This document shows positions 2,888-20,206 of a stretch of 39,927 nt of DNA, in pieces. The stretch covers positions 1 through 39,927 of the forward strand of contig PHCA01000006.1 in assembly GCA_002842085.1 (NCBI GenBank), given 5' to 3'. The translations under genes were made by a program, and so were the position numbers. The stretch comes from Chloroflexi bacterium HGW-Chloroflexi-1 (GTDB taxonomy: Bacteria > Chloroflexota > Anaerolineae > CG2-30-64-16). The notes beneath the pieces are model-generated. The model had not been told where the DNA came from. It saw only the letters and a list, made by a program, of their open reading frames with translations, and searched no databases. Within the stretch, counting starts at the first letter, position 1; the number at the start of each line of letters is the position of its first letter.

Positions 2888-2916
2888 TTGACAAAACACG
2901 CCAATGGGTGTATACT
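2888..2916 (+). promoter_or_regulatory. Near-consensus sigma70 promoter for the regulator/sulfur-relay/hydrogenase cluster
   Basis: TTGACA (2888-2893), 17-nt spacer, TATACT (2911-2916). It is preceded by a markedly A/T-rich (UP-element-like) stretch at ~2815-2887 in an otherwise GC-rich window. Confidence 0.7.
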
Positions 2917-2957
2917 GAACCTCGTAACAGCCAGCCGTTCCCCTATGCGAGGTTCCC

Positions 2958-3749
2958 GTGTCCGACAAACTCCTCACCACCCGCGAGCTGGAAGAATTGC
3001 TCCAGCTTGACCGTGTCACCATCTACAAGATGGTCAAGGACGGCGAGCTGCCGGCGCTGCGCGTGGGCGGGCAGTGGCGCTTTTCGGCCGAGGCCATTGA
3101 CGCCTGGCTCAAGGCTCAGCGTGGCGAGACGCCGCCCGAGCCGGTCCGCCAGGCGGCGCCGACCGATCTCACGAGTCTGCGCCTCACCGACCTGATCCCC
3201 ATCGCCACCCTGCAGAGCATCCAGGATCAATTCGCCCAGTTGTTGGGCGTGGCATCCTTCATCACCGACCTTGACGGGCAGCCGCTGGCGCCGTGCAGCC
3301 GGTGCAGCCGCTTCTGTCGGATCATCCACACCCGGCCCGAGGGGATGGCCGCGTGCCAGGCGTCGTGGCGGTCTATCGCCCGGCTGGACGAGGCCGGCGG
3401 CGCCGCCATTCACGTCTGTCACGCGGGCATCCAGTACGCCAGCGCGCCGGTGACGATCAACGGCCAGCGCGTGGGCATGGTGACGGCCGGCCAGTTCCTC
3501 ACCGAGGCGGCCGCCCTCGAGACCTTCAGGGAGCAGGCGTTGGCGACCGGCGCTCGTCTCGGCGTGGACGGCGAAGGGTTGGCCCAGGCCCAGGACGCCA
3601 TCGAAATCGTCACTGCGGAGCGGGCGGTGCAGATCACTGACCTGCTGGCGACCATCGCCAATGCCATCTCCGGCATCGGTTATCAAAGCTACCTGGCGCG
3701 CCAGACCTTAGCGCAGATCGCGCAGATCACGGCGGCGGCGCAGGTATAG
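2958..3749 (+). CDS. Transcriptional regulator: excisionase/MerR-type HTH fused to a PocR sensory domain
   Basis: N-terminus LLTTRELEELLQLDRVTIYKMVKDGELPALRVGGQWRF (excisionase-family HTH). The remainder is Cys-rich and PocR-like (FITDLDGQPLAPCSRCSRFCRIIH...ACQASW...HVCHAGIQYASAPV). GTG start. Confidence 0.75.
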   Translation: MSDKLLTTRELEELLQLDRVTIYKMVKDGELPALRVGGQWRFSAEAIDAWLKAQRGETPPEPVRQAAPTDLTSLRLTDLIPIATLQSIQDQFAQLLGVASFITDLDGQPLAPCSRCSRFCRIIHTRPEGMAACQASWRSIARLDEAGGAAIHVCHAGIQYASAPVTINGQRVGMVTAGQFLTEAAALETFREQALATGARLGVDGEGLAQAQDAIEIVTAERAVQITDLLATIANAISGIGYQSYLARQTLAQIAQITAAAQV

Positions 3750-3780
3750 TCCATCCACACCCACAGAGGAGGTTTTATTC

Positions 3781-4017
3781 ATGGCAATCCAACCCGATCA
3801 AGTCCTCGATTGCAGCGGCATGGCGTGCCCGATGCCCATCCTCAAGACTAAGAAGGCCGTGGATGGGCTGCAAGTCGGGCAGGTGTTGAAAATGATCGCC
3901 ACTGACCCCGGCTCGACCAGCGACATGGCGGCGTGGACCAAGAAGACCGGCCATGCGCTGGTCGGCTCCGAGCAGGACGGCGGCAAGCTCGTCTTCTACA
4001 TCAAGAAGACCAAGTAG
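3781..4017 (+). CDS. tusA: TusA-like sulfur carrier protein (SirA/YedF/YeeD family)
   Basis: 78 aa. LDCSGMACPMPILKTKKAV contains the CPxP active-site motif. GGAGG upstream. Confidence 0.9.
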   Translation: MAIQPDQVLDCSGMACPMPILKTKKAVDGLQVGQVLKMIATDPGSTSDMAAWTKKTGHALVGSEQDGGKLVFYIKKTK

Positions 4018-4065
4018 GGGCAAGGCCTTGCGCCTGCCCATGCAGGCCGGCCAAAGGAGCATCTC

Positions 4066-4428
4066 ATGTCTGAACAGACCAAACGCCTGGCGATCATCGC
4101 TGACAAGCTGCAAGTGTCCCCGATTGCCAACCCGGCCATGCCCCAGCCCATCCCCGGCATCTCCGTGCCCAACATCATCGGTATGCTGCCCGGCATGACT
4201 GCGGTGGCAACCGGCATGATGAATGGTTGGATGAAGAAGGCCAATGTCGCCAGGCTCAGCGAGTTGCTGGCGATGGCCGTCGAGTACGACGTCAAGCTCA
4301 TCGCGTGCCAGATGAGCATGGACGTGATGGGCATCAAGAAGGAAGACCTGATTGACGGCGTGGAGGTCGGCGGCGCGGCGACCTTCCTGGAGTTTGCGAG
4401 CGAGAACGCGATTGCGTTGTCGTTTTAG
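4066..4428 (+). CDS. DsrE/DsrF/DrsH-like (DrsE_2-type) protein, short form
   Basis: The C-terminal two thirds (MLPGMTAVATGMMNGWMKKANVARLSELLAMAVEYDVKLIACQMSMDVMGIKKEDLIDGVEVGGAATFL) match my recollection of the family. The N-terminal beta-alpha-beta region seems largely absent. Confidence 0.65.
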   Translation: MSEQTKRLAIIADKLQVSPIANPAMPQPIPGISVPNIIGMLPGMTAVATGMMNGWMKKANVARLSELLAMAVEYDVKLIACQMSMDVMGIKKEDLIDGVEVGGAATFLEFASENAIALSF

Positions 4429-4489
4429 TGCAACCAGACCTTCGAGGTCTACGAGACCTCGGAGGTCTTCGGGATCAAGGAGACAATCT

Positions 4490-4858
4490 ATGGCCGACGA
4501 TACCGTCCTCATCATCATGACCAGCGGCCCGGACACCCCCCGGCGCTGCGCGACCCCGTTCTTCTTCGCGTCCCTGGCCGCGGCCATGGAGTACGAAGTC
4601 AACATGTTCTTCACCATCGACGGCACGCTGCTCCTCAAGAAGGGGCTGGCCGAGACCGTCTACCCCAAGGCCGGCGGCAAGCCGGTGAGCGCCTTTATCC
4701 AGGACGCGCTGGATGCCGGCGTCAACTTCATGGCCTGCACCGCGTCCACCGAGCTGCACGACCTGGCACCCGAGGATCTGATCGAGGGCGTGAAGATGGT
4801 CGGCGGCGCGACGATGTGGCTGTTGGCGGAGGATAGCAAGACAGTGTTGACGTTTTGA
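4490..4858 (+). CDS. DsrE-family sulfur-relay protein
   Basis: MADDTVLIIMTSGPDTPRRCATPFFFASLAAAMEYEVNMFF...VNFMACTASTELHDL...GGATMW. AAGGAG upstream of the internal ATG at 4490 (ORF-track start 4352 is spurious). Confidence 0.75.
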   Translation: MADDTVLIIMTSGPDTPRRCATPFFFASLAAAMEYEVNMFFTIDGTLLLKKGLAETVYPKAGGKPVSAFIQDALDAGVNFMACTASTELHDLAPEDLIEGVKMVGGATMWLLAEDSKTVLTF

Positions 4859-4866
4859 GAACCATT

Positions 4867-4950
4867 GTCATTGCGAGGAGCCGCAGCCCCGAAGCAATCC
4901 CCCACATGGGAGCAGATTGCTTCGTCGCACACGTCGCTCCTCGCAATGAC
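4867..4950. repeat. Palindromic MITE-like element (short relative of the GTAACTACTCAGC family) inside the operon
   Basis: gtcattgcgaggagc (4867-4881) / gctcctcgcaatgac (4936-4950), plus inner gaagcaatc / gattgcttc. The same core occurs at 20213-, 25953-, 28117- and 30323-. Confidence 0.8.
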
Positions 4951-4985
4951 GAGGCTTGCAAGTTAATAAAAAAGGAGCCTGACTT

Positions 4986-5432
4986 ATGACCATCGTTCGC
5001 GGTTGCAACCTTCCCGAAGACCTCTACTACCTGCTCGAAAAGCACGTGTGGGCTAAACCCATCGAGGGCGGCCTGATCCGCGTGGGCATGACCAGCGTGG
5101 CGGGCAAGCTGGCCGGCGGCAAGCTGGCGGCGATCACCGTCAAGGCGAAGAGCATCGGTAAGGAAGTGGCGCAGGGCAAGAGCCTGGCCACCGTCGAAAG
5201 CAGCAAGTTCGTCGGCCCGGTGCCGGCGCCCGCCACCGGCGTGCTGGTGCGCGCCAACGACAAGCTGGCCGCCAACCCCAACCTGGCGATCAGCGACCCC
5301 TACGGCGAAGGCTGGATCGCCGAGGTCAAACCGAGCGCCTGGGACGCCGAAAAAGCCAGCCTCATCACCGGCGCGGCCGGCGTCGCCGCCTACCAGGCCA
5401 GGCTGGAGGCGGATGGTGTGGCGTGTGGGTGA
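4986..5432 (+). CDS. GcvH-family lipoyl-carrier protein (LbpA-like by context)
   Basis: HVWAKPIEGGLIRVGMTSVA...GKSLATVESSKFVGPVPAPATGVL...NPNLAISDPYGEGW. The lipoyl-lysine context VESsK is present. No other glycine-cleavage genes are nearby. Confidence 0.8.
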   Translation: MTIVRGCNLPEDLYYLLEKHVWAKPIEGGLIRVGMTSVAGKLAGGKLAAITVKAKSIGKEVAQGKSLATVESSKFVGPVPAPATGVLVRANDKLAANPNLAISDPYGEGWIAEVKPSAWDAEKASLITGAAGVAAYQARLEADGVACG

Positions 5433-5434
5433 GT

Positions 5435-5540
5435 GGGTAGATTGGTAGGTTGGTAAATTGGTAGATTGGGAGACCGGTCTCCCAATCTACCAATCTACCA
5501 AATACCAATGTACCAATCTACCAATCTACCAATCTGCCAA
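5435..5540. repeat. Inverted pair of GGTAGATT-type octamer arrays forming a long hairpin between the GcvH-like gene and hynS
   Basis: Left arm gggtagattggtaggttggtaaattggtagattgggagacc, right arm ggtctcccaatctaccaatctaccaaataccaatgtaccaatctacc.... Perfect palindrome centre at 5475/5476. Confidence 0.85.
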
Positions 5541-5553
5541 CCAGGAGGTTTCC

Positions 5554-6657
5554 ATGGCGGAAGAGACCATATACCAACGTCTACAGGCGGCGGGCATCTC
5601 GCGGCGCGACTTCCTGAAGGGGTGCGGGGGGCTGGCGGCGCTGATGGGGCTGCAACAGGCCCCGCCGGTGGCGGCCAGCGGGCTGCCCGCACATCTGGCG
5701 CGCGGGGGCGACCCGGCCCCGCTGATCGCGCGGGCCCTGGCCACGAAAGCGCGCGTGCCGGTCATCTGGCTGGAGCTCCAGGACTGCGCCGGCTGCAGCG
5801 AGGCGCTCACCCGCTCGCACAGCCCCACCCTCGTTGACCTGGTGCTCCGTGAGATCACCGTCGAGTACCATGAAACGCTGTCCGCCGCGGCCGGCTTCCA
5901 GGTCGAGGCGGCCAAGCAGGCGGCGATGAAGCAGTACGCCGGCAAGTACCTGCTGGTCGTGGAAGGCTCGATCCCGACCGACGGGATCTACTGCACGATC
6001 GGCGGCCACTCCGCGCTGGAGATCCTGCAGGAGGCCGCGGCGGGCGCGGCCGCGATCGTCGCCACGGGCAACTGCTCCGCGTTCGGCGGCCTGCCCAAGG
6101 CCCGGCCCAACCCGACCGGCGCCAAGGGCGTTTTGGACTTCATCGAAGACAAACCGGTCATCAACATCCCCGGCTGCCCGGCGATCCCCGAAGCGTTTAC
6201 CGGCACGTTGGCGCACTTCCTGATCTTCGGCGGCCTGCCGGAGTTGGACGAGCTGCACCGGCCCAAGACCTTCTACGGCCACACCGTGCATGACCGCTGC
6301 CTGCGCCGGCCGTTCTACGAGGCGGGCAAGTTCGCCAACACTTTTGACGACGAGGGCGCGCGCCAGGGCTGGTGTCTCTACAAGCTGGGCTGCAAGGGAC
6401 CGACCACCTACAACGCCTGCGCCGGCATCAAGTGGGACGCCGGCCTGTCGTTCCCGATCCAGTCGGGCCACCCCTGCCTGGGCTGCTCGCAGCCGAACTT
6501 CTGGGACGGCGGCGGGTTCTACCAGGGGCAGTCGGCGCCGCTCGATCGGCCCGGCATCGGCGTGGCTGCGGCCGCCGCAGGCATCGGCCTGGTGGCCGGC
6601 GCGGGGATTGCGATGGCGAATCGGGCGCAGAAGCGAGCGAGCGACGATGGCAAATAG
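5554..6657 (+). CDS. hynS: [NiFe]-hydrogenase small subunit, Tat-exported, with C-terminal membrane anchor
   Basis: Twin-arginine signal GISRRDFLKGCGGLAALMG. Cluster ligand motifs LQDCAGCSEAL, GNCSAFGG, PGCPAIPE, CLYKLGCKGPTTYNAC and HPCLGCSQPNFWD. Hydrophobic C-terminus GIGVAAAAAGIGLVAGAGIAMA. AGGAGG before ATG 5554. Confidence 0.95.
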   Translation: MAEETIYQRLQAAGISRRDFLKGCGGLAALMGLQQAPPVAASGLPAHLARGGDPAPLIARALATKARVPVIWLELQDCAGCSEALTRSHSPTLVDLVLREITVEYHETLSAAAGFQVEAAKQAAMKQYAGKYLLVVEGSIPTDGIYCTIGGHSALEILQEAAAGAAAIVATGNCSAFGGLPKARPNPTGAKGVLDFIEDKPVINIPGCPAIPEAFTGTLAHFLIFGGLPELDELHRPKTFYGHTVHDRCLRRPFYEAGKFANTFDDEGARQGWCLYKLGCKGPTTYNACAGIKWDAGLSFPIQSGHPCLGCSQPNFWDGGGFYQGQSAPLDRPGIGVAAAAAGIGLVAGAGIAMANRAQKRASDDGK

Positions 6658-6737
6658 CAAATGGCAAATAGCAAATAGCAAATAGCAAATGGCAGTTTGC
6701 AGTTTGCAGTTTGCAATTTGCAGTTTGCAGTTTGCAG
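6649..6737. repeat. Heptamer tandem arrays (GCAAATA/G)x6 followed by (GCAGTTT)x6, partially self-complementary
   Basis: ggcaaatagcaaatggcaaatagcaaatagcaaatagcaaatggcagtttgcagtttgcagtttgcaatttgcagtttgcagtttgcag. It starts inside the last codons of hynS. Confidence 0.85.
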
Positions 6738-6753
6738 CCAAGGGAGGCAAAGC

Positions 6754-7431
6754 ATGAACTGGACTTCTTTCCTCGAATTCACCCGCGGCCCGCTGTTTTA
6801 CGCGGCGCTGCTGATCTTCATCGCGGGCATGGTCTATCGCCTGGTGCGCGTGATCGCGCTGGGCTGGGCGCGTGACCGCGTCAAGTCGCGGGGCAGCAAG
6901 CTGGGGGGCGCGGTGCGGTCGCTCCTCAAAGGATTCCTGATCTGGCCCTTCATCCCGTGGGTCAAGAACACTTTCAGCCGCAGCCCGCTCATCTACGTCG
7001 CGGGCGGGCTGTTCCACCTGGGCCTCTTCGTGGTGATCTTCCTGGGCGCGGCGCACATGCTGGTCTGGAAGAGCCTGCTCGGGTTCGGCTGGCCCACCCT
7101 GCCGCTGCCCATCGTTGACTGGCTGGCGGTGGTGGCCATCGCGGCGATGATCGTGCTCTTCATCAACCGGCTGGTCCATCCCGTGCTCAAGCTGATCAGC
7201 GGCCCGGCCGAGTGGTTGAACCTGGTCTTCGTCTTCCTGCCTATGATCAGCGGCTACATCCTGACGCACCATCTCTTCTTCCGCTACGAGACGGCCTACA
7301 GCCTGCACATGCTGGCGGTGGACTGGCTGCTGATCTGGATCCCGCTGAGCCGCATTTCGCACTTCATGTTCTACTTCTTCGCGAAGGCCATCCACGGCGC
7401 GCAGTTCGGCAAGCGCGCGGTGGCGCCGTAA
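6754..7431 (+). CDS. isp1: Isp1: NarI/DsrM-like integral-membrane b-type cytochrome
   Basis: 225 aa with about five hydrophobic helices and conserved His (FHLGLFVV, ILTHHLF, SLHMLAV, RISHFMFYF). AGGGAGG upstream of ATG 6754. Position between hynS and an HdrD-like gene. Confidence 0.8.
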   Translation: MNWTSFLEFTRGPLFYAALLIFIAGMVYRLVRVIALGWARDRVKSRGSKLGGAVRSLLKGFLIWPFIPWVKNTFSRSPLIYVAGGLFHLGLFVVIFLGAAHMLVWKSLLGFGWPTLPLPIVDWLAVVAIAAMIVLFINRLVHPVLKLISGPAEWLNLVFVFLPMISGYILTHHLFFRYETAYSLHMLAVDWLLIWIPLSRISHFMFYFFAKAIHGAQFGKRAVAP

Positions 7432-7441
7432 GGAGGCCGCC

Positions 7442-8737
7442 ATGACGACACAAGCACCCACAAATGGCTCGGGCCGGTCTCCGACCGTGCCCGCCCTGCA
7501 AACCTTCGTCAAAGAGACCGGCGGCTGGGTCGCCAGCCAACTGGAAGCCTGCACCCGCTGCGGCATCTGCGCGGAGGCGTGTCACTTCTACCAGGCCACC
7601 GGCAACCCTGAATACGCGCCCGTGTGGAAGATCGAGCTGCTGCGCCGCGCCTACGAGCAGCGTTTCACCATCGGCGGCAGGCTGCGGCTGGCCGCGGGGC
7701 TGGCCAAGCCGATCAGCGACGCCGACCTGGCGCATTGGAGCACGCTCGTCTACGAAGCCTGCACCATGTGCAACAAGTGCGCCATCGCCTGCCCCATGGG
7801 CATCCAGATCGGCCCGCTGATCCACGAGGTGCGCTCGGCCATGTCGGAAGCGGGCGTGGTGCCGCCGGAACTGATGGCTGCGGTCAACAAGCAGATGGCC
7901 GAGGGCAGCCCGCTGGGCATGACCGACAGCGTCTGGGACTCGCGGCTGGAATGGGTGGCCGACGAGTGGGAGGAGGAGATCCCGCGCGACGTGCAGGGCG
8001 CCGACACGCTGGTGGTCTTCTCATCCATCGAGGTGATGAAGTTCCCCGGAAACGTCGCGGCCATCGCCAAGATCATGAACGCGGCGGGCGAGAAGTGGAC
8101 GGTCAGCTCGGAGGCGCGCGAGATCGTGAACTTCGGCTTCTACGAGGGCAACGAGCACCGCACCGTGGAAATCCTTAAGCGCGTCTTCGACGGCGCGGTG
8201 GCGCTGGGCGTCAAGCGCATCGTCGTGACCGAGTGCGGCCACGCCTACGACGCGCTGCGCTGGACCGCCGCGAACCTGATGGACGTGCCGGTCGGCATCG
8301 AGGTGACGCACATCGCCGGCGTGCTGGGCGATTTTGTCCGCCAGGGCCGCATCAAGCTCAAAGCGGGTGCGTTCGACAACGACGGCGTGATCACCTTCCA
8401 CGACGCGTGCAAGATTCAGCGCCGCGGCGGGCACATCAACGAGCCGCGCGAGATCCTGAAGATCCTGGCGCCCAACGCGTTCAAGGAAATGTCGCCCAAC
8501 CGCGAGCAGGCCATCTGCTGCTGCGGCGGCGGCGTGATCGCCATCAAAGAGGCCGACCCGCAGCGCTACGCCGTGTTCCAGATGAAGGTGGATCAGGCCC
8601 GCAAGGTGGGCGCGCAGACCGTGACGATGACCTGCTCCAACTGCCGCCTGCAATTCACCGATGGCGTCGCGCACTTCGGGTTGGATCTCAAGGTAACCGG
8701 TTTGGCGCAGATGGTGGCGGATGCGCTGGTGGAGTGA
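7442..8737 (+). CDS. isp2: Isp2: HdrD/DsrK-like cytoplasmic Fe-S protein with CCG domains
   Basis: Two 4Fe-4S motifs, CTRCGICAEAC and CTMCNKCAIACP. CCG-type motifs ...VTECGHAY... and QAICCCGGGV...TMTCSNCRLQF. No signal peptide. Confidence 0.85.
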   Translation: MTTQAPTNGSGRSPTVPALQTFVKETGGWVASQLEACTRCGICAEACHFYQATGNPEYAPVWKIELLRRAYEQRFTIGGRLRLAAGLAKPISDADLAHWSTLVYEACTMCNKCAIACPMGIQIGPLIHEVRSAMSEAGVVPPELMAAVNKQMAEGSPLGMTDSVWDSRLEWVADEWEEEIPRDVQGADTLVVFSSIEVMKFPGNVAAIAKIMNAAGEKWTVSSEAREIVNFGFYEGNEHRTVEILKRVFDGAVALGVKRIVVTECGHAYDALRWTAANLMDVPVGIEVTHIAGVLGDFVRQGRIKLKAGAFDNDGVITFHDACKIQRRGGHINEPREILKILAPNAFKEMSPNREQAICCCGGGVIAIKEADPQRYAVFQMKVDQARKVGAQTVTMTCSNCRLQFTDGVAHFGLDLKVTGLAQMVADALVE

Positions 8738-8805
8738 CGAGTAATGAGTAACGAGTAACGAGTGACCCGCAGGGGACACTTACTCGTTACTCGTTACTCA
8801 TTGTC
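8732..8805. repeat. Hairpin built from GAGTAAC heptamer repeats
   Basis: gagtgacgagtaatgagtaacgagtaacgagtgac ... cacttactcgttactcgttactcattgtc, overlapping the isp2 stop codon. Confidence 0.85.
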
Positions 8806-8842
8806 CACCACGTTCACAAGTCCGATGAAAAGGAGTGATCCT

Positions 8843-9163
8843 ATGGCATCGTTCATGCTTACACCTGTCGAGAAGGGCATCATGCGTTGTCAGCACACCG
8901 GCGCGTTCACGCATGAGGAGATTCGGGCGCTGGCCAGCTTCCTCGACGACTATCGCGGGAAGCTGCTGATTGACCTGTCGGGCACGACCGGCGAAGAATG
9001 CGCCCGGCACATCCACAACTTTCGCCCGATGATGCCCACCGCGGCCATCTTCGGCGCGGCAATTGACCCCGCCATCCTGGCGGTCCCGGAGAGTTACTAC
9101 CTCCACGAGGTGCGTTGCTTCGAGACCGAGGGTGAGGCGCTGGCCTGGCTTCGGAACCAGTAG
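8843..9163 (+). CDS. Small STAS/SpoIIAA-like domain protein (function unknown)
   Basis: 106 aa from the internal ATG with AAAGGAG upstream. GKLLIDLSGTTGEE ... AAIFGAAIDPAIL ... VRCFETEGEALAWL resembles the SpoIIAA-like/DUF3478 pattern (from memory only). Confidence 0.5.
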   Translation: MASFMLTPVEKGIMRCQHTGAFTHEEIRALASFLDDYRGKLLIDLSGTTGEECARHIHNFRPMMPTAAIFGAAIDPAILAVPESYYLHEVRCFETEGEALAWLRNQ

Positions 9164-9172
9164 GAGGGCATC

Positions 9173-10912
9173 GTGGCAAAACGACTCGTCATTGACCCCA
9201 TCACGCGCATCGAGGGCCACCTGCGCATCGAGGCCGAGGTGGGCGCGGACAACAAGATCGCTGCGGCGTACTCGTCGGGCACCATGGTGCGCGGCATCGA
9301 GATCATCCTGAAGGGCCGCGACCCGCGGGAGGCGTGGGCCTTCACCCAGCGCGCCTGCGGCGTCTGCACCACCGTCCACGCCTTCGCCTCGATCCGCTCG
9401 GTGGAGGACGCGCTGAAGATCAAGATCCCGCAGGCGGCCAACCTGATCCGCAACCTGATGATCGCGCAGCAGTACGTCCACGACCACGTGATGCACTTCT
9501 ACCACCTGCACGCGCTGGACTGGGTGGATGTGGTGGCCGCGCTCAAGGCCGATCCGCAGAAGACCTCGGAGATCCAGCAGTCCATCTCGCCCTGGCTCAA
9601 CTCGTCGCCGGCCTACTTCGCCGACGTGTGGAACAAGGTGCAGGCGATCGTGGACAGCGGGCAGCTTTCGATCTTCGCCAACGCCTACTGGGGCCATCCG
9701 GCCTACAAGCTGCCGCCCGAGGTCAACCTGCTGGCGGTGGCGCACTACCTGGAGGCGCTGGACTGGCAAAAGGACGTCGTCAAGATCCACACGATCTTCG
9801 GCGGCAAGAACCCGCACCCGAACTTCGTCGTCGGCGGCGTGCCGATGCCGATTGACCTGAACAGCGACACCGCGCTCAACGCCAGCCACCTGGCGATCAT
9901 CGGCGCCAGCATCGAAAAGATCATCGCGTTCGTGGACCAGGTCTATCTGCCCGATCTGCTGGCGATCGCGCCCTACTACCTGGAATACGCGGGGCTGGGC
10001 GAGGGGCTGGGCAACTTCCTGACCTGGGGCGAGCTCCCCGCGGACGGCGCCAACGATCCGGCCAAATTCCTGGTACCGCGCGCGCTGATCCTGGGCCGCG
10101 ACCTCAAGAATGTCACCGTGCCCGACCCCAACGACTTCGACAAGATGCGGGAGTACGTCGCGCACTCCTGGTACAAGTACGGCGCCGGTGACAACGCGGG
10201 GCTGCACCCCTGGCAGGGCGAGACGACCTTCAACTACACCGGCCCCAGGCCGCCCTACGAGCAGTTGGCGGTGGAGCAGAAGTACTCGTGGCTGAAGGCC
10301 CCGCGCTGGAACGACGTGGCGGTGGAGGTGGGCCCGCTGGCGCGCGTCCTGGCAATGTACGCCACCGGCCACCAGCAGACCCAGGAGTTGACGAACGCCA
10401 TTCTGCAGAAGCTGGGCGCGCCGATCACCGCGGTCTTCTCGACCCTGGGCCGCACGGCCGCCCGCGCCATCGAGACCAAAGTCTTCGCCGACAGCCTGCG
10501 GACGTTCTATAATGGGCTGATCGCGGAGATCAAGGCGGGCAACACGCGCACCTTCGACGACAACAAGTGGGAGCCGAGCACGTGGCCCGCCAGGGCGCAA
10601 GGCTTCGGCTTCATGGAGGCCCCGCGCGGCGCGCTGGGGCACTGGATCGTCATCGAGAATGGCAAAATCGCTAACTACCAGATGGTGGTGCCGACGACCT
10701 GGAACGGCTCTCCGCGCGACCACAAGGGCCAGCCGAGCGCGTATGAGGCTGCGCTGGTGGGTACGCCGCTCGCCAAGCCCGAATGGCCGCTGGAGATCCT
10801 GCGCACCATCCACTCCTTCGACCCGTGCATGGCGTGCGCGATCCACATGGTGGATGCGATCGGCGCCGATCTGGGCGAGGTGGGGGTTGGGTTGAACGTG
10901 TGCGTGAGTTGA
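9173..10912 (+). CDS. hynL: [NiFe]-hydrogenase large subunit
   Basis: N-terminal DPITRIEGHLRIE and QRACGVCTTVH. C-terminal DPCMACAIH followed by a 21-aa tail (the protease-cleaved extension). GTG start with AGGAGGG upstream. Confidence 0.95.
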   Translation: MAKRLVIDPITRIEGHLRIEAEVGADNKIAAAYSSGTMVRGIEIILKGRDPREAWAFTQRACGVCTTVHAFASIRSVEDALKIKIPQAANLIRNLMIAQQYVHDHVMHFYHLHALDWVDVVAALKADPQKTSEIQQSISPWLNSSPAYFADVWNKVQAIVDSGQLSIFANAYWGHPAYKLPPEVNLLAVAHYLEALDWQKDVVKIHTIFGGKNPHPNFVVGGVPMPIDLNSDTALNASHLAIIGASIEKIIAFVDQVYLPDLLAIAPYYLEYAGLGEGLGNFLTWGELPADGANDPAKFLVPRALILGRDLKNVTVPDPNDFDKMREYVAHSWYKYGAGDNAGLHPWQGETTFNYTGPRPPYEQLAVEQKYSWLKAPRWNDVAVEVGPLARVLAMYATGHQQTQELTNAILQKLGAPITAVFSTLGRTAARAIETKVFADSLRTFYNGLIAEIKAGNTRTFDDNKWEPSTWPARAQGFGFMEAPRGALGHWIVIENGKIANYQMVVPTTWNGSPRDHKGQPSAYEAALVGTPLAKPEWPLEILRTIHSFDPCMACAIHMVDAIGADLGEVGVGLNVCVS

Positions 10913-11011
10913 TGGGTATTGGGTAGTGGGTAGTGTGTGGAGCGCCAACGCAACACGCAACATTGCGCAGCATCCCTGTGGGACGCAATACATGAGCGCA
11001 AGTGAACGAGC

Positions 11012-11644
11012 ATGACCACCATGAATCGTATCGTCGTCCTCGGCATCGGCAACACCCTGAATCACGATGAGGGGGTTGGCGTCCACGCGGTGCAGGCGCT
11101 ACAGGCGCACCTGACCCCCCGCCCCCCTTCTCTGCGAGGGAAGGGGGAGACAAGCTCCCCTCCCCTCGCAGGGGAGGGGTTGGGGGAGGGGTCGGCCCTC
11201 GCAGGGGAGGGGTTGGGGGAGGGGTCGGCCCTCGCAGGGGAGGGGTTGGGGGAGGGGTCGGTGCTCGCAGGGCCGTGGAGTGAGGTCGCCTTCCTCGACG
11301 GCGGCACGTTGGGCCTGAATCTGCTGCCCATCGTCGAAGAAGCCAGCCATTTGCTGATCCTCGACGCGGTGGATGCGCGGCAGCCGCCCGGCACGGTGAT
11401 CGAGCTGGCGGGTGAGGCCATCCCGCTCTTCAGCGGCATCAAGCTGTCGCAGCATCAAGTCACCTTCCAGGAGGTGCTGGGGCTGGCGGCCGTGCGCGGC
11501 AAGCTGCCGCCCCACCTGCACCTGATCGGCGTCCAGCCGGCCGACCTGGAGATCGGCCTGGAGCTCAGCCCCGTCGTCGCCGCCGCACTGCCGGAGGTAG
11601 TCCGTCGCGCTCGCGCCGTGCTCCAGGCGTGGAGGGTGGCCTGA
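11012..11644 (+). CDS. hynD: Hydrogenase maturation endopeptidase (HybD/HupD family) carrying a ~50-aa repeat insertion
   Basis: IVVLGIGNTLNHDEGVGVHAV ... FLDGGTLGLNLLP ... LLILDAVD ... SQHQV match the family. An insertion lies between the first helix and the DGGT motif. Confidence 0.85.
   Translation: MTTMNRIVVLGIGNTLNHDEGVGVHAVQALQAHLTPRPPSLRGKGETSSPPLAGEGLGEGSALAGEGLGEGSALAGEGLGEGSVLAGPWSEVAFLDGGTLGLNLLPIVEEASHLLILDAVDARQPPGTVIELAGEAIPLFSGIKLSQHQVTFQEVLGLAAVRGKLPPHLHLIGVQPADLEIGLELSPVVAAALPEVVRRARAVLQAWRVA
11165..11272 (+). repeat. 33-bp tandem repeat, about 3.3 copies, in-frame inside hynD
   Basis: ctcgcaggggaggggttgggggaggggtcggcc x3 plus a partial copy. It translates to LAGEGLGEGSA x3. 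Confidence 0.95.
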
Positions 11645-11649
11645 CAAAA

Positions 11650-11678
11650 GTGCCAGGCGCCTGCGAGGCGCCTGGCAC
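11650..11678 (+). terminator. Perfect 12-bp GC-rich stem-loop after hynD (weak or partial terminator, or a processing site)
   Basis: gtgccaggcgcc-tgcga-ggcgcctggcac. Only TT follows, so this is not a canonical intrinsic terminator. Confidence 0.35.
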
Positions 11679-11705
11679 TTGAATGAAGGAATCTATCATC
11701 TTGCC

Positions 11706-12800
11706 ATGATCCAGAACCCCATCCGTCTCCTCGACCTGGGCCTCGTGCCCCCCATTCGTTCGCAAACCATCTACCACGCGGTCGGCCACGCCATGACAAC
11801 CGATTCCCCCGACACCATCATCCTGGTGGCGCCGGAACGCCCCTACGTCTGCATCGGCTACCATCAGGACCTGGAGCGCGAGGTGGACCTGGGCTACTGC
11901 CGCGAGCACGGCCTGCCGGTCACGCGTCGCGAGGTGGGCGGCGGCGCGGTCTACCTGGACGCAGGGCAACTCTTCGTGCAGTGGGTCTTCCACTGCGACG
12001 CGCTGCCCCACAGCCTGGAGGCCAGGTTCGAGCTTTACATCCGGCCGCTGGTGGAGACGTACCAGGCGCTGGGCATCGCGGCCTACCACCGGCCGGTGAA
12101 CGACGTCCACGTGGCCGGCAAGAAGATCGGCGGCACGGGCGCGGCGCAGACGGGCGAGGCCGAGGTGCTGGTGGGCAGCCTGATGTTTACCTTCGACAAG
12201 GCCACCATGGCCCGCGTGCTCAAGGTTTCGTCCGAGAAGATGCGCGACAAGATCTTCGAGAGCCTGGCGCAGTACATGACTACCATGGCCGAGCAAGTGG
12301 ACCCGCTGCCTGACCGCGCCGCGGTGCGCGACCTCTACCTGGCGCGGGCTGCGGTCGCGTTGGGGCGCGAGATCGCGCCCGGCGCGGCGACCGCGGCCGA
12401 GCTGGCCCTGGCCGCCGAGCTGGACGCGCGCTTCGTCAGCGAGGACTGGCTCTACCAGAAGGGCGGTCTGCGCCGGGCGGGGGTGAAGATCCATGAGGAC
12501 GTGCAGGTGGCCGAGGGCGCGTTCAAGGCGCCGGGCGGGCTGATCCGGGTCACGGTGCGGCTGGCCGCGGGGCGGGTGGATGACCTCGAGTTGGCCGGCG
12601 ATTTCACGATCTGCCCCGCCGCGGCGGTGGGCGCCCTGCAAGCCGCGGCCGGCGGCGCCGAGCTGACCCGCGACGCGCTGACCGCACGTTTCGCAGCCGC
12701 GTATCGCGATCACGCCATCCAGGCGCCGGGCGTCACGCCCGCACATCTGGCCGACGCGGTGTTGGCCGCAGTCGCGGCGCGCCAGGTGGGCGGCCGATGA
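11706..12800 (+). CDS. lplA: Lipoate-protein ligase (LplA family, catalytic plus C-terminal accessory domain)
   Basis: VTRREVGGGAVYLDAGQLF and VAGKKIGGTGAAQ (BPL/LPL catalytic motifs). C-terminal GGLIRVTVRLAAGRVDDLELAGDFT. ATG 11706 is preferred over the TTG at 11679 used by the ORF track. Confidence 0.8.
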   Translation: MIQNPIRLLDLGLVPPIRSQTIYHAVGHAMTTDSPDTIILVAPERPYVCIGYHQDLEREVDLGYCREHGLPVTRREVGGGAVYLDAGQLFVQWVFHCDALPHSLEARFELYIRPLVETYQALGIAAYHRPVNDVHVAGKKIGGTGAAQTGEAEVLVGSLMFTFDKATMARVLKVSSEKMRDKIFESLAQYMTTMAEQVDPLPDRAAVRDLYLARAAVALGREIAPGAATAAELALAAELDARFVSEDWLYQKGGLRRAGVKIHEDVQVAEGAFKAPGGLIRVTVRLAAGRVDDLELAGDFTICPAAAVGALQAAAGGAELTRDALTARFAAAYRDHAIQAPGVTPAHLADAVLAAVAARQVGGR

Positions 12801-12871
12801 ATCCCGAAGACGCCAAGATCCTCATCGTTATGACCAGCGGCCCCCAGACGCCGGAGCGCTGCGCGGCGCCC
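12797..12871 (+). pseudogene. Remnant (first ~25 codons) of a third DsrE-family gene
   Basis: MNPEDAKILIVMTSGPQTPERCAAP parallels MADDTVLIIMTSGPDTPRRCATP of the 4490 gene. There is an ATGA overlap with the lplA stop. Similarity ends abruptly in G/C-run REP-like sequence. Confidence 0.65.
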
Positions 12872-12953
12872 TGCCCTGAAATTCGCCCCCCAGCCCCTCG
12901 ATTTCGGGGGGAGCCAGGTTCCACCCCAGGATTGGGGGGTCAGGGGGGCGTTT

Positions 12954-13847
12954 TCATGAACCGCTCCAGGTCATGTGCGTTGTACGCGTCGAGTTGTTCT
13001 TGAACGACATCACCCGCCCTTTTCGCGCATCTTCCTCGGAGTACCAGTGAGTGGTCACGCTTTTCAGCTCGGTGAAGAAGCGCACGCCGTCGGCGCCCAT
13101 GGCGTGCGGATCGCCGAAGAACAAGTTCTTGTGTCCCGTGAAGCCGAAGATGCCCGGCGGCACCGGGATGCCGACGTTGACGCCCACCATGCCGCCGTGC
13201 GTCCGCCTGGCGAACTCGCGAGCGTAGAAGCCGCTCTGCGTGTAGATCACCAAGCCGTTGGCAAACTCGCTGGCGTTCATCAGCGCCAGCCCTTCCTCGA
13301 AATCCCGCACCCGCTTGATGCACAACACCGGCCCGAAGATCTCCCGGTCGCCGATGGTCATGCCGGGTTGCACGTGGTCGAACAGCGTCGGCCCAAGGTA
13401 GAAGCCATTCTCGTAGCCTGGGACCGTCGTCACCTGGCGGCCATCCAGCGCCAACGTGGCGCCCTCTTCGACCCCCTTCTCGATCCACTTGATCACGGAC
13501 TGGCGGTGCTCGTCGTTGACCAGCGGCCCCGGTTGGCTGCTCTTGTCGTATGCCGGGCCGATCTTCAGCGCTTGCATCAGCTTCACGAGGGTGGCCACCA
13601 GCTCATCGGCAATGGCTTCCTCGGCGACCACCACGGGCAGCGCCATGCACCGCTCGCCTGCGCACCTGCACGCCGAGTTGATGATGCCGCGCGCCGAGCG
13701 CTCCAGCGCGGCGTCCTGCAGCACCAGCGCATGGTTCCTGGCTTCGGTCAGTGCCTGCACCCGCTTGCCGCCTGGGTGGTGACGCTCAGCGATCTCCGCG
13801 GCCTCGCTGACGTTCTGGCCTGGCTCACGCCGCGTACCCGTTGAGGG
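12954..13847 (-). pseudogene. mmsA: 5'-truncated methylmalonate-semialdehyde dehydrogenase (aldehyde dehydrogenase family) fragment
   Basis: Only the C-terminal ~half is present: GKRVQAL..KNHALVL...AGERCMALPVVV (catalytic Cys)...EIFGPVL...GVNVGIPVPP. A TAG at 13848-13850 closes the frame upstream and no N-terminal half is found. Confidence 0.7.
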
Positions 13848-15310: not shown

Positions 15311-15338
15311 TTACCAATTTACCAATTTACCAATTTAC
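15311..15338. repeat. CCAATTTA octamer repeats (complement orientation of the GGTAnATT family)
   Basis: ttaccaatttaccaatttaccaatttac lies between the fucosidase start and the ABC ATPase stop. The last codons of the ATPase ORF (..KLVNW) read into it. Confidence 0.8.
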
Positions 15339-16002: not shown

Positions 16003-17020
16003 ACGATCTCCTCCTTCTCACCCGCGGCCACAACCCGCGCAGCCCCCGCCGGCGGGGAGCCGGCGGTTCCTCTTCCAACCCTGGCAACAGGGGCGTAGCC
16101 GCCACCCGGCGGTCGGCCACCGGGCGGAGCAGGATGCCTTCGTCGGTCACTTCCAGGATCGTCCGGTCGCCGATGTTAAACTGCTCCAGGTACTCTCTCG
16201 GCACCTGCAGCCGCCCCGCTGAATCGAGCACCACGTACTCATGGTACGTCACTGCCTCCGCGGCGCCCTCCTCTACCAGGCGCTCGCCCACCATGGCCCG
16301 TTCCAACTGGCTCACCTGCCGGATGGTCTCGGTGCTGATTTTGCCGTCGCGGATGGCCACCACGCGGTCCACCTGCCCGACGATGCGGGGATCGTGGGTG
16401 ACGATGATGATCGTCAGGCCCAAGGTCTCGTTCAGGCGGCGGAATGTCTCCAGAATCGTCTGCGCCGTGGTTGAATCTACCTCGCCGGTCGGCTCGTCGG
16501 CCAGGAGGAGCGCCGGCCGGTTGGCCAGGGCCACGGCGATAGCCGCCCGCTGCTGCTCGCCGCCCGAAAGCTCGGCCAGCCGGTGCTGGCGACGCCCGCT
16601 CAACCCCACCGCCGCCAGCAACTCCTGCGCCCGGCCGCGCTTCTCCCCCCACCGGATGCCCGCCACCGTCATGGGTAACTCCACGTTCTCTTGCACTGAA
16701 AGGTACGGGATCAGGTTACGGGCCACCTGCTGCCAGACGAAGCCAACCTGGTTACAACGGTAACGGTCCAGCGCGGCGGCTGAAAGCTTTATCAGATCCT
16801 GGCCGTTGACCGTCACCCGTCCCGCCGAGGGCCGGTCCAGCCCGCCCAGAATGTTGAGCAGCGTGGTCTTGCCAGAGCCAGATGGCCCCACGATCCCCAG
16901 CAGCGCGCCCCGTTCCACGGTCAGGTCAAGCCCCTGCAAGGCTACGACCTCCAGCCCGGCAATTTTGTAGATCTTGACCAGGTTGTCACATGTAATGAGA
17001 ATGTTGTTTGGCTCTGGCAT
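15983..17020 (-). CDS. ABC transporter ATP-binding protein with C-terminal SpoVT/AbrB-like extension
   Basis: [40 protein letters not shown]-terminal GRLQVPREYLEQFNIGDRTILEVTDEGILLRP. Start at internal ATG 17020 (GGAG upstream); the upstream ORF part translates repeat DNA. Confidence 0.85.
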   Translation of the reverse strand: MPEPNNILITCDNLVKIYKIAGLEVVALQGLDLTVERGALLGIVGPSGSGKTTLLNILGGLDRPSAGRVTVNGQDLIKLSAAALDRYRCNQVGFVWQQVARNLIPYLSVQENVELPMTVAGIRWGEKRGRAQELLAAVGLSGRRQHRLAELSGGEQQRAAIAVALANRPALLLADEPTGEVDSTTAQTILETFRRLNETLGLTIIIVTHDPRIVGQVDRVVAIRDGKISTETIRQVSQLERAMVGERLVEEGAAEAVTYHEYVVLDSAGRLQVPREYLEQFNIGDRTILEVTDEGILLRPVADRRVAATPLLPGLEEEPPAPRRRGLRGLWPRVRRRRSYDDRPG

Positions 17021-17034
17021 CGGACTCTCCAGGG

Positions 17035-17250
17035 GTGGTATACTGGTAAATTGGTACGTTGGTAGATTGGTAGATTGGTAGATTGGTAGATTGGAATGTA
17101 CCAATTTCCCAATGTACCAGTTTCCCAATGTACCAATTTCCCAATGTACCAATTTCCCAATGTACCAATTTCCCAATGTACCAATGTACCAATGTACCAA
17201 TTTCCCAATTTCCCAATGTACCAATTTCCCAATTTACCAATCTACCAATC
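17035..17250. repeat. Largest octamer-repeat block: ~60 bp of GGTAnATT units abutting ~155 bp of complementary CCAATnTn units
   Basis: ggtaaattggtacgttggtagattggtagattggtagattggtagattgg | aatgtaccaatttcccaatgtaccagtttccc... The 16-bp super-unit is aatgtaccaatttccc. Confidence 0.9.
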
Positions 17251-20125: not shown

Positions 20126-20206
20126 GTTGGTAGGTTGGTAGATTGGTAGATTGGTAGGTTGGTAGATTGGTAGACTGGTAGGTTGGTAGATTGGTAGGTT
20201 GGTAGA
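20126..20206. repeat. GGTAGATT/GGTAGGTT octamer array
   Basis: gttggtaggttggtagattggtagattggtaggttggtagattggtagactggtaggttggtagattggtaggttggtaga. Confidence 0.9.

Follow-up and report, generated by a model that had tools for sequence, protein, structure and literature searches.

Which cytoplasmic protein exchanges electrons with Isp2, the iron-sulfur subunit of the Isp-type [NiFe]-hydrogenases? The acceptor has been described as unresolved (PMC11018855), and a locus in Chloroflexi bacterium HGW-Chloroflexi-1 suggested a possible answer. The window analyzed here is a stretch of 39,927 nucleotides (contig PHCA01000006.1), in which the initial annotation, made from the sequence alone, had placed a hydrogenase within a set of genes for sulfur carriers, a lipoate-binding protein and a lipoate ligase, and had proposed an H2-driven reductase of protein-bound sulfur or disulfide. 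We first asked whether this arrangement was real. Searches of the open reading frames against Pfam and NCBIfam profiles confirmed all of the named genes, and positions 2958-12800 of the + strand encode a PocR regulator, TusA, a DsrE2-like protein, a DsrE3-like protein, a GcvH-like protein, HynS, Isp1, Isp2, a predicted STAS-fold protein, HynL, HynD and LplA, followed by a dsrE3 remnant.

The region begins with a sigma-70-type promoter-like site (2888-2916, + strand; TTGACA-17-TATACT, 11 of 12), which is a consensus match only; 6 promoter-like sites were found in the region against 1.2 expected. It is followed by a regulator gene with HTH_17 and PocR domains (2958-3749; PocR E 1.9e-37). The TusA gene (3781-4017; E 5.6e-25) encodes the CPxP cysteine, Cys16, which is conserved in 58 of 58 orthologues. 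The DsrE2-like gene (4066-4428; DrsE_2 E 5.6e-27) matched profile positions 56-155 only, and comparison with relatives of 156-161 aa revealed a 41-residue in-frame internal deletion of the N-terminal core that no other locus shows. Alignments to the best-matching orthologues start at query residue 12, and this sulfurtransferase is probably inactive in this genome. The full-length copy in L001, one of the numbered loci in our comparison, hit PDB entries 3PNX and 2QS7 best, and the single cysteine of this protein is conserved in 60 of 60. The DsrE3-type sulfurtransferase (4490-4858; DsrE E 2.7e-17) showed 3MC3, the S. solfataricus DsrE3A, as its best PDB hit, and both of its cysteines, Cys20 and Cys83, are conserved in 60 of 60.

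The hydrogenase genes lie downstream on the same strand. HynS (5551-6657) possesses Oxidored_q6 and NiFe_hyd_SSU_C domains, a hydrophobic C-terminal tail and a Tat signal (SRRDFLK), with both TIGR00391 (404 bits) and TIGR01409 above their cut-offs. Isp1 (6754-7431) gave no Pfam hit, and its matches to NCBIfam TmcC (E 7e-37) and HmcE (E 6e-29) were both below cut-off; however, this membrane protein of the NarI/HmcE/TmcC type carries six histidines (88, 101, 173, 185, 203 and 214) that are conserved in 74-76 of 76 and would be enough for two bis-His haems b. Isp2 (7442-8737) is a cytoplasmic HdrD/DsrK-like protein with CCG and Fer4_8 matches, two CxxCxxCxxxC motifs, and similarity to DsrK, TmcB and HmcF. 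HynL (9173-10912; NiFeSe_Hases E 2.7e-226) carries the motifs RIEGH, RACGVC and DPCMACAIH, the last followed by a C-terminal extension. Its best solved relative is the Isp-type enzyme 3MYR of Allochromatium vinosum (838 bits against 693 for the next class), and this result, together with the gene order hynS-isp1-isp2-hynL, supported the assignment to the Isp type.

Between isp2 and hynL lies a gene for a 106-aa protein of unknown function (8843-9163) with invariant Cys16, His18 and Cys53. Its Pfam SpoIIAA-like match was below cut-off (E 2e-4), whereas its AF2 model (pLDDT 89) retrieved anti-sigma antagonists and STAS domains as top Foldseek hits (TM 0.5-0.6, best E 3.5e-3). It has 549 cluster representatives at E <= 1e-5. 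The HynD/HycI-type maturation endopeptidase (11012-11644) contains an in-frame 33-nt x 3.3 tandem repeat insert (11163-11272), while its relatives are 164-173 aa. The lipoate-protein ligase (11679-12800; start codon uncertain, TTG 11679 or ATG 11706) is an LplA catalytic domain fused to an LplB-like C-terminal domain. It is 52-66% identical to the ligases at the same position in loci L005, L010, L016, L017, L023 and the Aminicenantes loci, but only 36% to those of L001 and L002. An open reading frame at 12797 overlaps the lplA stop by ATGA; its first 25 codons (12797-12871, + strand) are about 70-80% identical to the DsrE3 N-terminus and are followed by G-rich repeat sequence, and the 68-aa frame gave no Pfam hit.

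To determine whether the GcvH-like protein (4986-5432; GCV_H E 6e-26) is an ordinary H protein, we examined its scores and diagnostic residues. It scored below both NCBIfam GcvH cut-offs, and it possesses the lipoyl lysine (Lys74 in VESSK) and the two cysteines (Cys7 in RGCNLPED and the C-terminal Cys147) by which Cao et al. 2018 (PMC6067878) defined LbpA against GcvH. Cys7 and Lys74 are conserved in 67 of 67 orthologues and Cys147 in 66 of 67. In addition, the nearest 50%-identity cluster representatives share this signature, and the protein is 36% identical over the full length to a two-Cys LbpA-like protein of Acidithiobacillus ferrooxidans. The GcvH-like protein is therefore an LbpA.

The initial annotation had raised the possibility that transcripts end at a hairpin between lbpA and hynS. 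The hairpin (5434-5540) is real (-65 kcal/mol, z = -8) and consists of inverted tandem arrays of the 8-mer GGTAGATT/TCTACCAA, followed by AGGAGG and the hynS ATG. However, it has no U-tract, and no terminator-like site above chance was found between the sulfur-relay genes and hynS. Arrays of this kind are found in many intergenic spacers of this window, the same repeat occurs at four other places in it, and the hairpin is absent from relatives, in which the median lbpA-hynS spacer is 73 nt.

We next asked whether the synteny is restricted to this genome. Among the 80 species loci most similar in Isp2, 64 have LbpA directly upstream of hynS, a recurrence far beyond chance. Where the contig reaches far enough, TusA is present in 53 of 56 linked loci, DsrE2 in 53 of 56, DsrE3 in 54 of 56 and a lipoate ligase in 45 of 49, so that four of 49 have no ligase nearby. 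The median spacers are 22 nt for DsrE3-LbpA and 32 nt for HynD-LplA. The 106-aa protein is present in 34 of 61 linked loci. The PocR regulator is present in 39 of 56 linked loci and also upstream of the hydrogenase-only loci L079-L081, but is absent from the Aminicenantes versions; it therefore goes with the hydrogenase, not with the sulfur set. No flanking gene family recurs in more than 9 of 67 loci, so the unit ends at TusA (or PocR) and LplA. Record titles include Chloroflexota, Aminicenantes/Ca. Saccharicenans (contigs up to 1.17 Mb) and Melioribacteraceae, although several MAG taxon labels ('Bacteroidetes', 'Actinomycetota', 'Eubacteriales') may be binning errors. Interestingly, lipoylation is provided in two alternative ways at the same position, either by a single LplA or by a ligase plus two radical-SAM (LipS1/S2-like) genes in L035, L037, L059 and L065. 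Accessory insertions in relatives are sulfur-related, namely an SQR-like flavoprotein in L083 and a TDT-family anion transporter in L025 and L035.

To reveal which hydrogenase subunit tracks the presence of this set, we compared linked and unlinked loci. Every linked locus has an Isp2 score ratio of at least 0.69 and every unlinked one at most 0.59, whereas HynL, HynS and Isp1 do not separate. The Isp2 of the window is 63-64% identical to linked loci of other phyla but only 49-51% to unlinked Chloroflexota loci, while the corresponding values for HynL are 73-78% and 69-77%. The group-specific residues of Isp2 include two directly after the CCGGGG motif. The set travels with the hydrogenase across phyla, and only the Isp2 sequence changes when the set is absent.

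Taken together, the tests set by the initial annotation that could be run all came out in favor of its interpretation. The region is best read as one self-contained operon in which HynSL is exported by the Tat pathway and sits on Isp1, a cytochrome-b-type membrane protein, and all parts apart from the internally deleted DsrE2 gene are intact. With moderate confidence, and in the absence of expression, biochemical or genetic data, we infer that H2 is oxidised in the periplasm, that electrons cross the membrane through the Isp1 haems, and that the CCG cluster of Isp2 reduces a disulfide or persulfide on LbpA, either the lipoyl dithiolane or sulfur bound to it or to Cys147. TusA and the DsrE proteins would feed sulfane sulfur onto LbpA, so that the net reaction would be H2 + protein-bound S(0) -> H2S. 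Protons would be released outside and consumed inside, giving a quinone-independent redox loop like the H2:heterodisulfide system of Methanosarcina (VhtAGC plus HdrDE) and like DsrMK acting on DsrC; in effect, Isp2 would take the place that sHdrB/C hold in sHdr systems. Published physiology links Isp-type Hyn to H2-dependent sulfur reduction without an identified partner (PMC10892978; PMC11018855), and standard potentials of -414 mV for H+/H2, about -290 mV for lipoamide and about -270 mV for S(0)/HS- would make the H2-uptake direction exergonic. Nevertheless, the free energy of H2 to lipoamide (about -24 kJ/mol under standard conditions) barely pays for moving two charges, and Isp-type enzymes are reversible, so the direction is not fixed by sequence. 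Classical Isp hydrogenases are thought to exchange electrons with quinone through Isp1, and the same may hold here, with Isp2-LbpA as a side branch. The module has no sulfur importer, rhodanese or dihydrolipoamide dehydrogenase, leaving the source of sulfane sulfur unknown, and the relay is variable, since DsrE2 is internally deleted in this window and the Oscillochloris-type loci lack TusA and DsrE2.

Other readings of the operon seem less likely. Sulfane sulfur delivered to LbpA might instead be oxidised at the CCG cluster of Isp2, as at sHdrB in sulfur oxidisers, with the electrons passing through the Isp1 haems to menaquinone or, under some conditions, to the hydrogenase for H2 release, so that H2 and sulfur would be two donors feeding one cytochrome b. 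The accessory set (TusA, DsrE2, DsrE3, LbpA, a dedicated ligase and, in some loci, LipS1/S2-like genes) is exactly that described for sulfur-oxidising sHdr systems, the module occurs in Oscillochloris-type phototrophs (L059, L061), which probably use sulfide and H2 as donors, the SQR-like gene of L083 lies inside the module, and Isp1 belongs to the NarI/HmcE family, which usually reacts with quinones. However, Isp2 lacks the flavoprotein sHdrA and the second CCG protein of sHdr, no sHdr gene is seen in any 20-kb locus, many carriers are labelled as anaerobic fermenter lineages (Anaerolineae, Aminicenantes), and oxidation of sulfane sulfur coupled to H2 formation would be strongly endergonic. 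This scenario is possible but doubtful.

It is also unlikely that lipoyl-LbpA is only a two-electron shuttle, passing H2-derived electrons from Isp2 to NAD+ through the cell's dihydrolipoamide dehydrogenase, or to thiol peroxidases and thioredoxin-type repair systems, with TusA and DsrE merely maintaining or repairing the sulfur atoms of the carrier. L001 is flanked by thioredoxin and AhpC, L083 has AhpC fragments upstream, the Acidithiobacillus LbpA-like gene lies among thioredoxin, hemerythrin and globin genes, and NAD+ or ferredoxin has been guessed as the Isp2 acceptor (PMC11018855). Nevertheless, thioredoxin and peroxiredoxin neighbours are not conserved, no E3 gene is in the module, and the near-universal presence of two or three persulfide carriers with invariant cysteines is unexplained by a pure shuttle. 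Least likely of all is the absence of any direct redox partnership, in which the sulfur-relay, LbpA and LplA genes would supply sulfur for the clusters of this Isp2 variant or merely hitch-hike with the hydrogenase. TusA-type carriers may also serve cofactor biosynthesis, and the hydrogenase-only loci L079-L081 in the same phylum appear complete; but lipoate has no known role in Fe-S assembly, order, orientation and short spacers are kept across phyla while flanks are not, and the Isp2 sequence type switches with the presence of the set.

The individual parts of this operon are known, whereas no paper in the literature we searched describes their combination. Although the direction of electron flow and the substrate remain inferred, the recurrence of this arrangement in several phyla points to the still unknown cytoplasmic partner of this hydrogenase type and names a testable partner for Isp2.

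The ORF listing and the profile searches confirmed the co-directional string of genes on the + strand that the initial annotation had described. In order, the string encodes an HTH_17/PocR regulator (2958-3749), TusA (3781-4017), a DsrE2-like protein (4066-4428), a DsrE3-like protein (4490-4858), a GcvH-like protein (4986-5432), the Tat-signal small subunit HynS (5551-6657), Isp1 (6754-7431), Isp2 (7442-8737), a 106-aa protein (8843-9163), the large subunit HynL (9173-10912), a HycI-type protease (11012-11644) and a lipoate-protein ligase with an LplB-like C-terminal domain (11679-12800). Isp1 is TmcC/HmcE-like and gave no Pfam hit, while Isp2 possesses two ferredoxin-type cluster motifs plus a CCG domain and is DsrK/TmcB/HmcF-like. 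A strong promoter-like site (TTGACA-17-TATACT) was found at 2888-2916. The rest of the window encodes a PadR regulator, ferredoxin-type and NifB/X-like proteins, ABC transporters, glycosidases and a histidine kinase, and no sHdr or other sulfur genes were found there among the ORFs scanned.

The features of the hydrogenase are consistent with the Isp type (group 1e). The gene order is the hallmark of this family, and the same order was found in the related loci in which all four genes are on the contig. In addition, the best solved relative of HynL is the group 1e enzyme of Allochromatium vinosum, 3MYR (838 bits), whereas the next hit, a group 1d enzyme, scores 693, and HynL is 60% identical to the HynL of a proteobacterial Isp locus (L082). 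The Tat signal of HynS passes TIGR01409, and in HynL the motif DPCMACAIH is followed by a 21-residue extension, with a HycI-type protease gene following. Isp1 keeps six histidines in 74-76 of 76 relatives. Searches by sequence revealed no solved structures for Isp1 or Isp2.

We next asked whether the GcvH-like protein is an ordinary H protein, which the initial annotation had named as an outcome that would count against its interpretation. The protein matches GCV_H (E 6e-26) but scores below both NCBIfam GcvH cut-offs (94.8 against 117 and 66 against 115.85), and no gcvT or gcvP gene is nearby. Lys74 in the motif ESSK aligns with the lipoyl lysine of solved GcvH. Across 67 orthologues from related loci, Cys7 (RGCNLPED) and the lipoyl Lys74 are conserved in 67 of 67, and a cysteine at the last or penultimate position (Cys147) is conserved in 66 of 67. 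Cao et al. 2018 (PMC6067878) define LbpA against GcvH by exactly this combination of a strictly conserved lysine and two conserved cysteines, one near each terminus, that GcvH lacks. On the basis of these sequence comparisons, the hypothesis of an ordinary H protein was rejected and the protein was identified as an LbpA. An exhaustive search of 50%-identity cluster representatives also showed that the nearest relatives share the GC-x-[LIV]P N-terminus and the C-terminal cysteine, often next to glycines, while more distant relatives lack both. A plasmid gene of Acidithiobacillus ferrooxidans, 36% identical over the full length, has the same two cysteines. On plasmid p1 of this species (locus L084, NZ_CP040512.1, 6659-12704), this two-cysteine LbpA-like gene, annotated as "glycine cleavage system protein H", sits among globin, FAD oxidoreductase, thioredoxin and two hemerythrin genes, with an HdrB-like "heterodisulfide reductase-related" CCG protein nearby, which represents another sHdr-independent LbpA context, this time with a stress-like flavour.

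The sulfur carriers are also well conserved at their cysteines. TusA keeps its CPxP cysteine in 58 of 58 orthologues, the DsrE3-like protein keeps two cysteines in 60 of 60, and the DsrE2-like protein keeps its single cysteine in 60 of 60. The best solved relative of the DsrE3-like protein is 3MC3, the DsrE3A of S. solfataricus, and the best solved relatives of the DsrE2-like protein are 3PNX and 2QS7 (DsrE2B), although the NCBIfam DsrE2 score is below cut-off.

The arrangement is conserved, bounded and mobile. Two relatives of LbpA on contigs of 5.4 and 1.2 Mb carry the same string with different neighbours. To extend this observation, we scanned one genome per GTDB species with an Isp2 alignment, which found 295 relatives, and the best 80 were kept and annotated with profiles built from the window and the related loci L001 and L002. 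Of these 80 loci, 64 have LbpA directly upstream of hynS (hereafter linked loci), six more have the same Isp2 type but the contig ends at hynS, and ten have a divergent Isp2 and, where upstream sequence exists, no LbpA set. Among linked loci with enough sequence, TusA was present in 53 of 56, DsrE2 in 53 of 56, DsrE3 in 54 of 56, PocR in 39 of 56, a lipoate ligase in 45 of 49 and the STAS-like gene, which is inserted before hynL, in 34 of 61. Median spacers are 22 nt (dsrE3-lbpA), 73 nt (lbpA-hynS), 3, -17 and 10 nt within the hydrogenase block, and 32 nt (hynD-lplA). We also searched the flanks for a conserved neighbour that would reveal the substrate, such as an importer, a rhodanese, an E3 or Psr, and none was found. 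No flanking gene family recurs in more than 9 of 67 loci; the top family is ferritin (9 of 67), and Hyp maturation genes (HypA, HypB, HypF) also recur. Record titles name many Anaerolineae and Anaerolineales, Thermoflexales, Caldilineaceae, Chloroflexales (including Oscillochloris sp. ZM17-4), a coherent group of Aminicenantes/Ca. Saccharicenans and a Melioribacteraceae MAG, although a few odd labels may be binning errors.

The variants of the module point the same way. Eighteen loci carry a third DsrE paralogue, whereas the Oscillochloris-type loci keep only DsrE3 and LbpA. In four loci (L035, 15602-20328, and L037, L059 and L065), the single LplA is replaced by a GcvH-like gene lacking both LbpA cysteines (C-terminus ...RYRxQGWID), a ligase, two radical-SAM (LipS1/S2-like) genes and a second ligase-like gene, which looks like a lipoate assembly set of the kind linked to sHdr clusters. 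Because the ligase of the window is only 36% identical to those of L001 and L002, we considered whether it might be a foreign replacement; this was rejected, as ligases 52-66% identical sit at the same position in other linked loci, so two ligase lineages exist within the module family. A near relative of the window (L083, LbpA 90% identical, same upstream neighbours) has a 478-aa SQR-like flavoprotein (16548-17984; Pyr_redox_2, weak match to type III sulfide:quinone reductase) between hynL and hynD, and also a four-helix-bundle "23S rRNA IVP" ORF (10513-10968) in the lbpA-hynS spacer, where the window has its repeat hairpin. Two linked loci, L035 (13009-14220) and L025 (10095-11261), have a TDT-family (TehA/SLAC1-type) anion transporter gene between hynL and hynD. 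Interestingly, some hydrogenase-only Chloroflexota loci, L071, L073 (8658-11245) and L075, carry two tandem Isp2 genes (hynS-isp1-isp2-isp2-hynL).

To reveal which subunit might interact with the LbpA set, we compared linked and unlinked loci. In a tree of HynL, hydrogenase-only Chloroflexota loci (L076, L079-L081) nest among linked ones. In contrast, profile-score ratios separated the two classes perfectly for Isp2 (linked at least 0.69, unlinked at most 0.59) but not for HynL, HynS or Isp1. The Isp2 of the window is 63-64% identical to the Isp2 of linked loci of other phyla and 49-51% identical to that of unlinked Chloroflexota loci, while the corresponding values for HynL are 73-78% and 69-77%. 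Both Isp2 types keep all cluster-binding cysteines, and fourteen positions are fixed in 62 linked sequences and differ in the unlinked ones, two of them directly after the CCGGGG motif. We take these findings as comparative evidence, not proof, that Isp2 is the interface.

Some genes of this particular copy have been altered. All genes give full-length matches except the DsrE2-like gene (4066-4428), in which a 41-residue in-frame deletion removes the N-terminal beta-alpha-beta core. The orthologues examined are full length (156-161 aa in L001, L002 and L083; none of the closest BLAST matches shows the deletion), including near relatives L004 and L083, and the protein is probably an inactivated carrier in this genome. 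An in-frame 33-nt tandem repeat (11163-11272; 3.3 copies, 97% matches) inside hynD adds about 37 residues (GEGLGEGSALA...) to the maturation protease, and a similar G-rich sequence lies at about 12870-12950. The 3' edge of the module (12797-13760) is scarred. An ORF that overlaps the ligase stop by ATGA starts with 25 codons that match the N-terminus of DsrE3 and then loses all similarity; this remnant is followed by G-rich repeats and a minus-strand aldehyde dehydrogenase fragment (12954-13760) that covers only Pfam profile positions 237-461. The fucosidase gene starts at 14048, so the N-terminal half of the dehydrogenase is gone.

Three spacers inside the module (5434-5540, 6647-6737 and 8732-8799) hold head-to-head inverted arrays of 7-8-mer tandem repeats (for example GGTAGATT x 4.8 facing TCTACCAA x 8), and such arrays also occur at 1375-1410, 15311-15338, 17036-17249 and 20106-20206. 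They fold into very stable hairpins, and the one before hynS folds at -65 kcal/mol (z = -8). The initial annotation had raised the possibility that transcripts terminate at this hairpin (5435-5540), but a role as an operon-splitting terminator was not supported: it has no U-tract, the terminator scan gave 5 sites against 5.8 expected with none there, the element is a repeat found at five places in the window, and relatives lack it. The 16-mer TCTACCAATCTACCAA has 27 matches in the window against 0 expected, and no Rfam family matched. Thus, without transcript data, we regard the element as a genome-specific intergenic repeat rather than an operon boundary.

The 106-aa protein (8843-9163) is unusually conserved for a small accessory protein. 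There are 549 cluster representatives at E <= 1e-5, and the 120 best are at least 73% identical, with Cys16, His18 and Cys53 invariant, which suggests a metal or redox site rather than a phospho-switch. The AF2 model has a pLDDT of 89, and Foldseek ranked anti-sigma-factor antagonists, SLC26 STAS domains and a DUF3478 structure first, although with modest scores (TM 0.5-0.6, best E 3.5e-3). The predicted STAS fold is reasonable, but the function is unknown. In L003, L064 and L066, this gene sits upstream of pocR instead of between isp2 and hynL.

Among known systems, the bacterial Isp-type hydrogenase HynS-Isp1-Isp2-HynL of Thiocapsa roseopersicina and A. vinosum shares the Tat-exported small subunit, the cytochrome-b-type Isp1 and the HdrD-like Isp2, and its physiology is linked to sulfur. 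However, the classical loci, and the hydrogenase-only Chloroflexota and Steroidobacteraceae loci seen here (L071-L076, L079-L082) where upstream sequence exists, have no TusA, DsrE, LbpA or LplA genes, and the Isp2 is a distinct sequence type, 36-51% identical to the linked type. No cytoplasmic partner has been described for them (PMC11018855). The sHdr-LbpA sulfur-oxidation system of Hyphomicrobium denitrificans, Aquifex, Acidithiobacillus and Thioalkalivibrio also shares with the module an LbpA with the lipoyl lysine and the two signature cysteines, a dedicated LplA-type ligase, in some loci with LipS1/S2-like radical-SAM genes, and the TusA, DsrE2 and DsrE3 carriers. Cao et al. describe hdr-like genes as "inevitably associated" with lbpA, but here lbpA occurs without them: no sHdrA, B1, B2, C1 or C2 genes were found among the window ORFs scanned, and none recurs in the flanks of the 67 linked loci. 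In their place stands a periplasmic hydrogenase with a membrane cytochrome b and one HdrD-like protein, and the likely direction is reductive, not oxidative. The module was therefore not assigned to sHdr, with which it only shares the accessory set.

A NarI-type cytochrome b paired with a cytoplasmic CCG protein that reduces a (protein-bound) disulfide or trisulfide is also found in DsrMK(JOP) with DsrC, in HdrDE with CoM-S-S-CoB and in the Tmc/Hmc complexes. Isp2 matches DsrK (E 3e-63), TmcB and HmcF, and Isp1 matches TmcC and HmcE, but all of these matches are below the NCBIfam cut-offs (213.9 bits against 400 for the DsrK model), as is the DsrM score (16.7 against 300), so Isp1 and Isp2 are relatives, not members. 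There is no DsrC, DsrAB or cytochrome c subunit, and none of the module proteins scanned against Pfam matched a DsrC/TusE family. The electron input is a directly attached hydrogenase and the proposed substrate carrier is lipoylated, although the C-terminal cysteine of LbpA may recall the C-terminal arm of DsrC. The archaeal group 1g Isp-type hydrogenase of Acidianus contains Isp1/Isp2 and is used for H2-dependent sulfur reduction (PMC11018855); however, there the sulfur reductase is a separate membrane molybdoenzyme (SreABC) reached through quinone, and no LbpA or sulfur-relay genes are described.

From these findings we infer, as a reading about as likely as not, that H2 is oxidised in the periplasm, that electrons are transferred through the Isp1 haems to Isp2, and that a disulfide or persulfide carried by lipoylated LbpA is reduced at the CCG cluster. 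TusA and the DsrE proteins would supply sulfane sulfur, with net H2S formation and a charge-separating redox loop, for which HdrDE with the Vht hydrogenase and DsrMK with DsrC appear to be the analogies. Published physiology links Isp-type Hyn to H2-dependent sulfur reduction, although in purple sulfur bacteria the link of these enzymes to sulfur metabolism is still called a speculation that needs confirmation (PMC10892978). This mechanism has to be weighed against three alternatives, namely an oxidative sHdr-like role, LbpA as a plain electron shuttle to NAD+ or peroxidases, and an assembly or hitch-hiking role of the set. A more far-reaching and tentative possibility, somewhat less likely than not, is that LbpA, loaded with sulfur by TusA and DsrE, is the direct physiological substrate of Isp2. 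This would be the first identified cytoplasmic acceptor of an Isp-type hydrogenase and the first role for a lipoate-binding protein outside sHdr and carbon metabolism, and it would define a quinone-independent, H2-driven, protein-bound sulfur respiration that is widespread in Anaerolineae, Aminicenantes and relatives.

Both the Isp-type hydrogenase and the LbpA sulfur-relay set normally seen with sHdr are already known; what differs here is that the hydrogenase has recruited, or is built around, this set. Full-text searches, which did not cover most subscription journals, found no paper describing a hydrogenase encoded with LbpA, a lipoate ligase and TusA/DsrE, and the sHdr-LbpA papers checked contain "hydrogenase" only in a cited reference or not at all. 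What Isp2 reduces is still treated as open, and a 2024 paper offers only NAD+ or ferredoxin as guesses (PMC11018855). The module provides a concrete, genetically defined candidate partner, LbpA with TusA and DsrE, plus the ligase needed to make it; the proteins are small and easy to express, and at least one locus comes from a named isolate genome (Oscillochloris sp. ZM17-4), which may be culturable. The LbpA protein alone has about 1,300 cluster representatives (clusters at 90% identity) at E <= 1e-10 in public data, and most record titles name uncultured Anaerolineae and Aminicenantes from sludge, sediment, soil and subsurface samples. The finding also shows that, at the level of the loci examined rather than of whole genomes, LbpA and its relay are not confined to sHdr sulfur oxidisers, which changes how lbpA, tusA and dsrE hits should be read in metagenomes.
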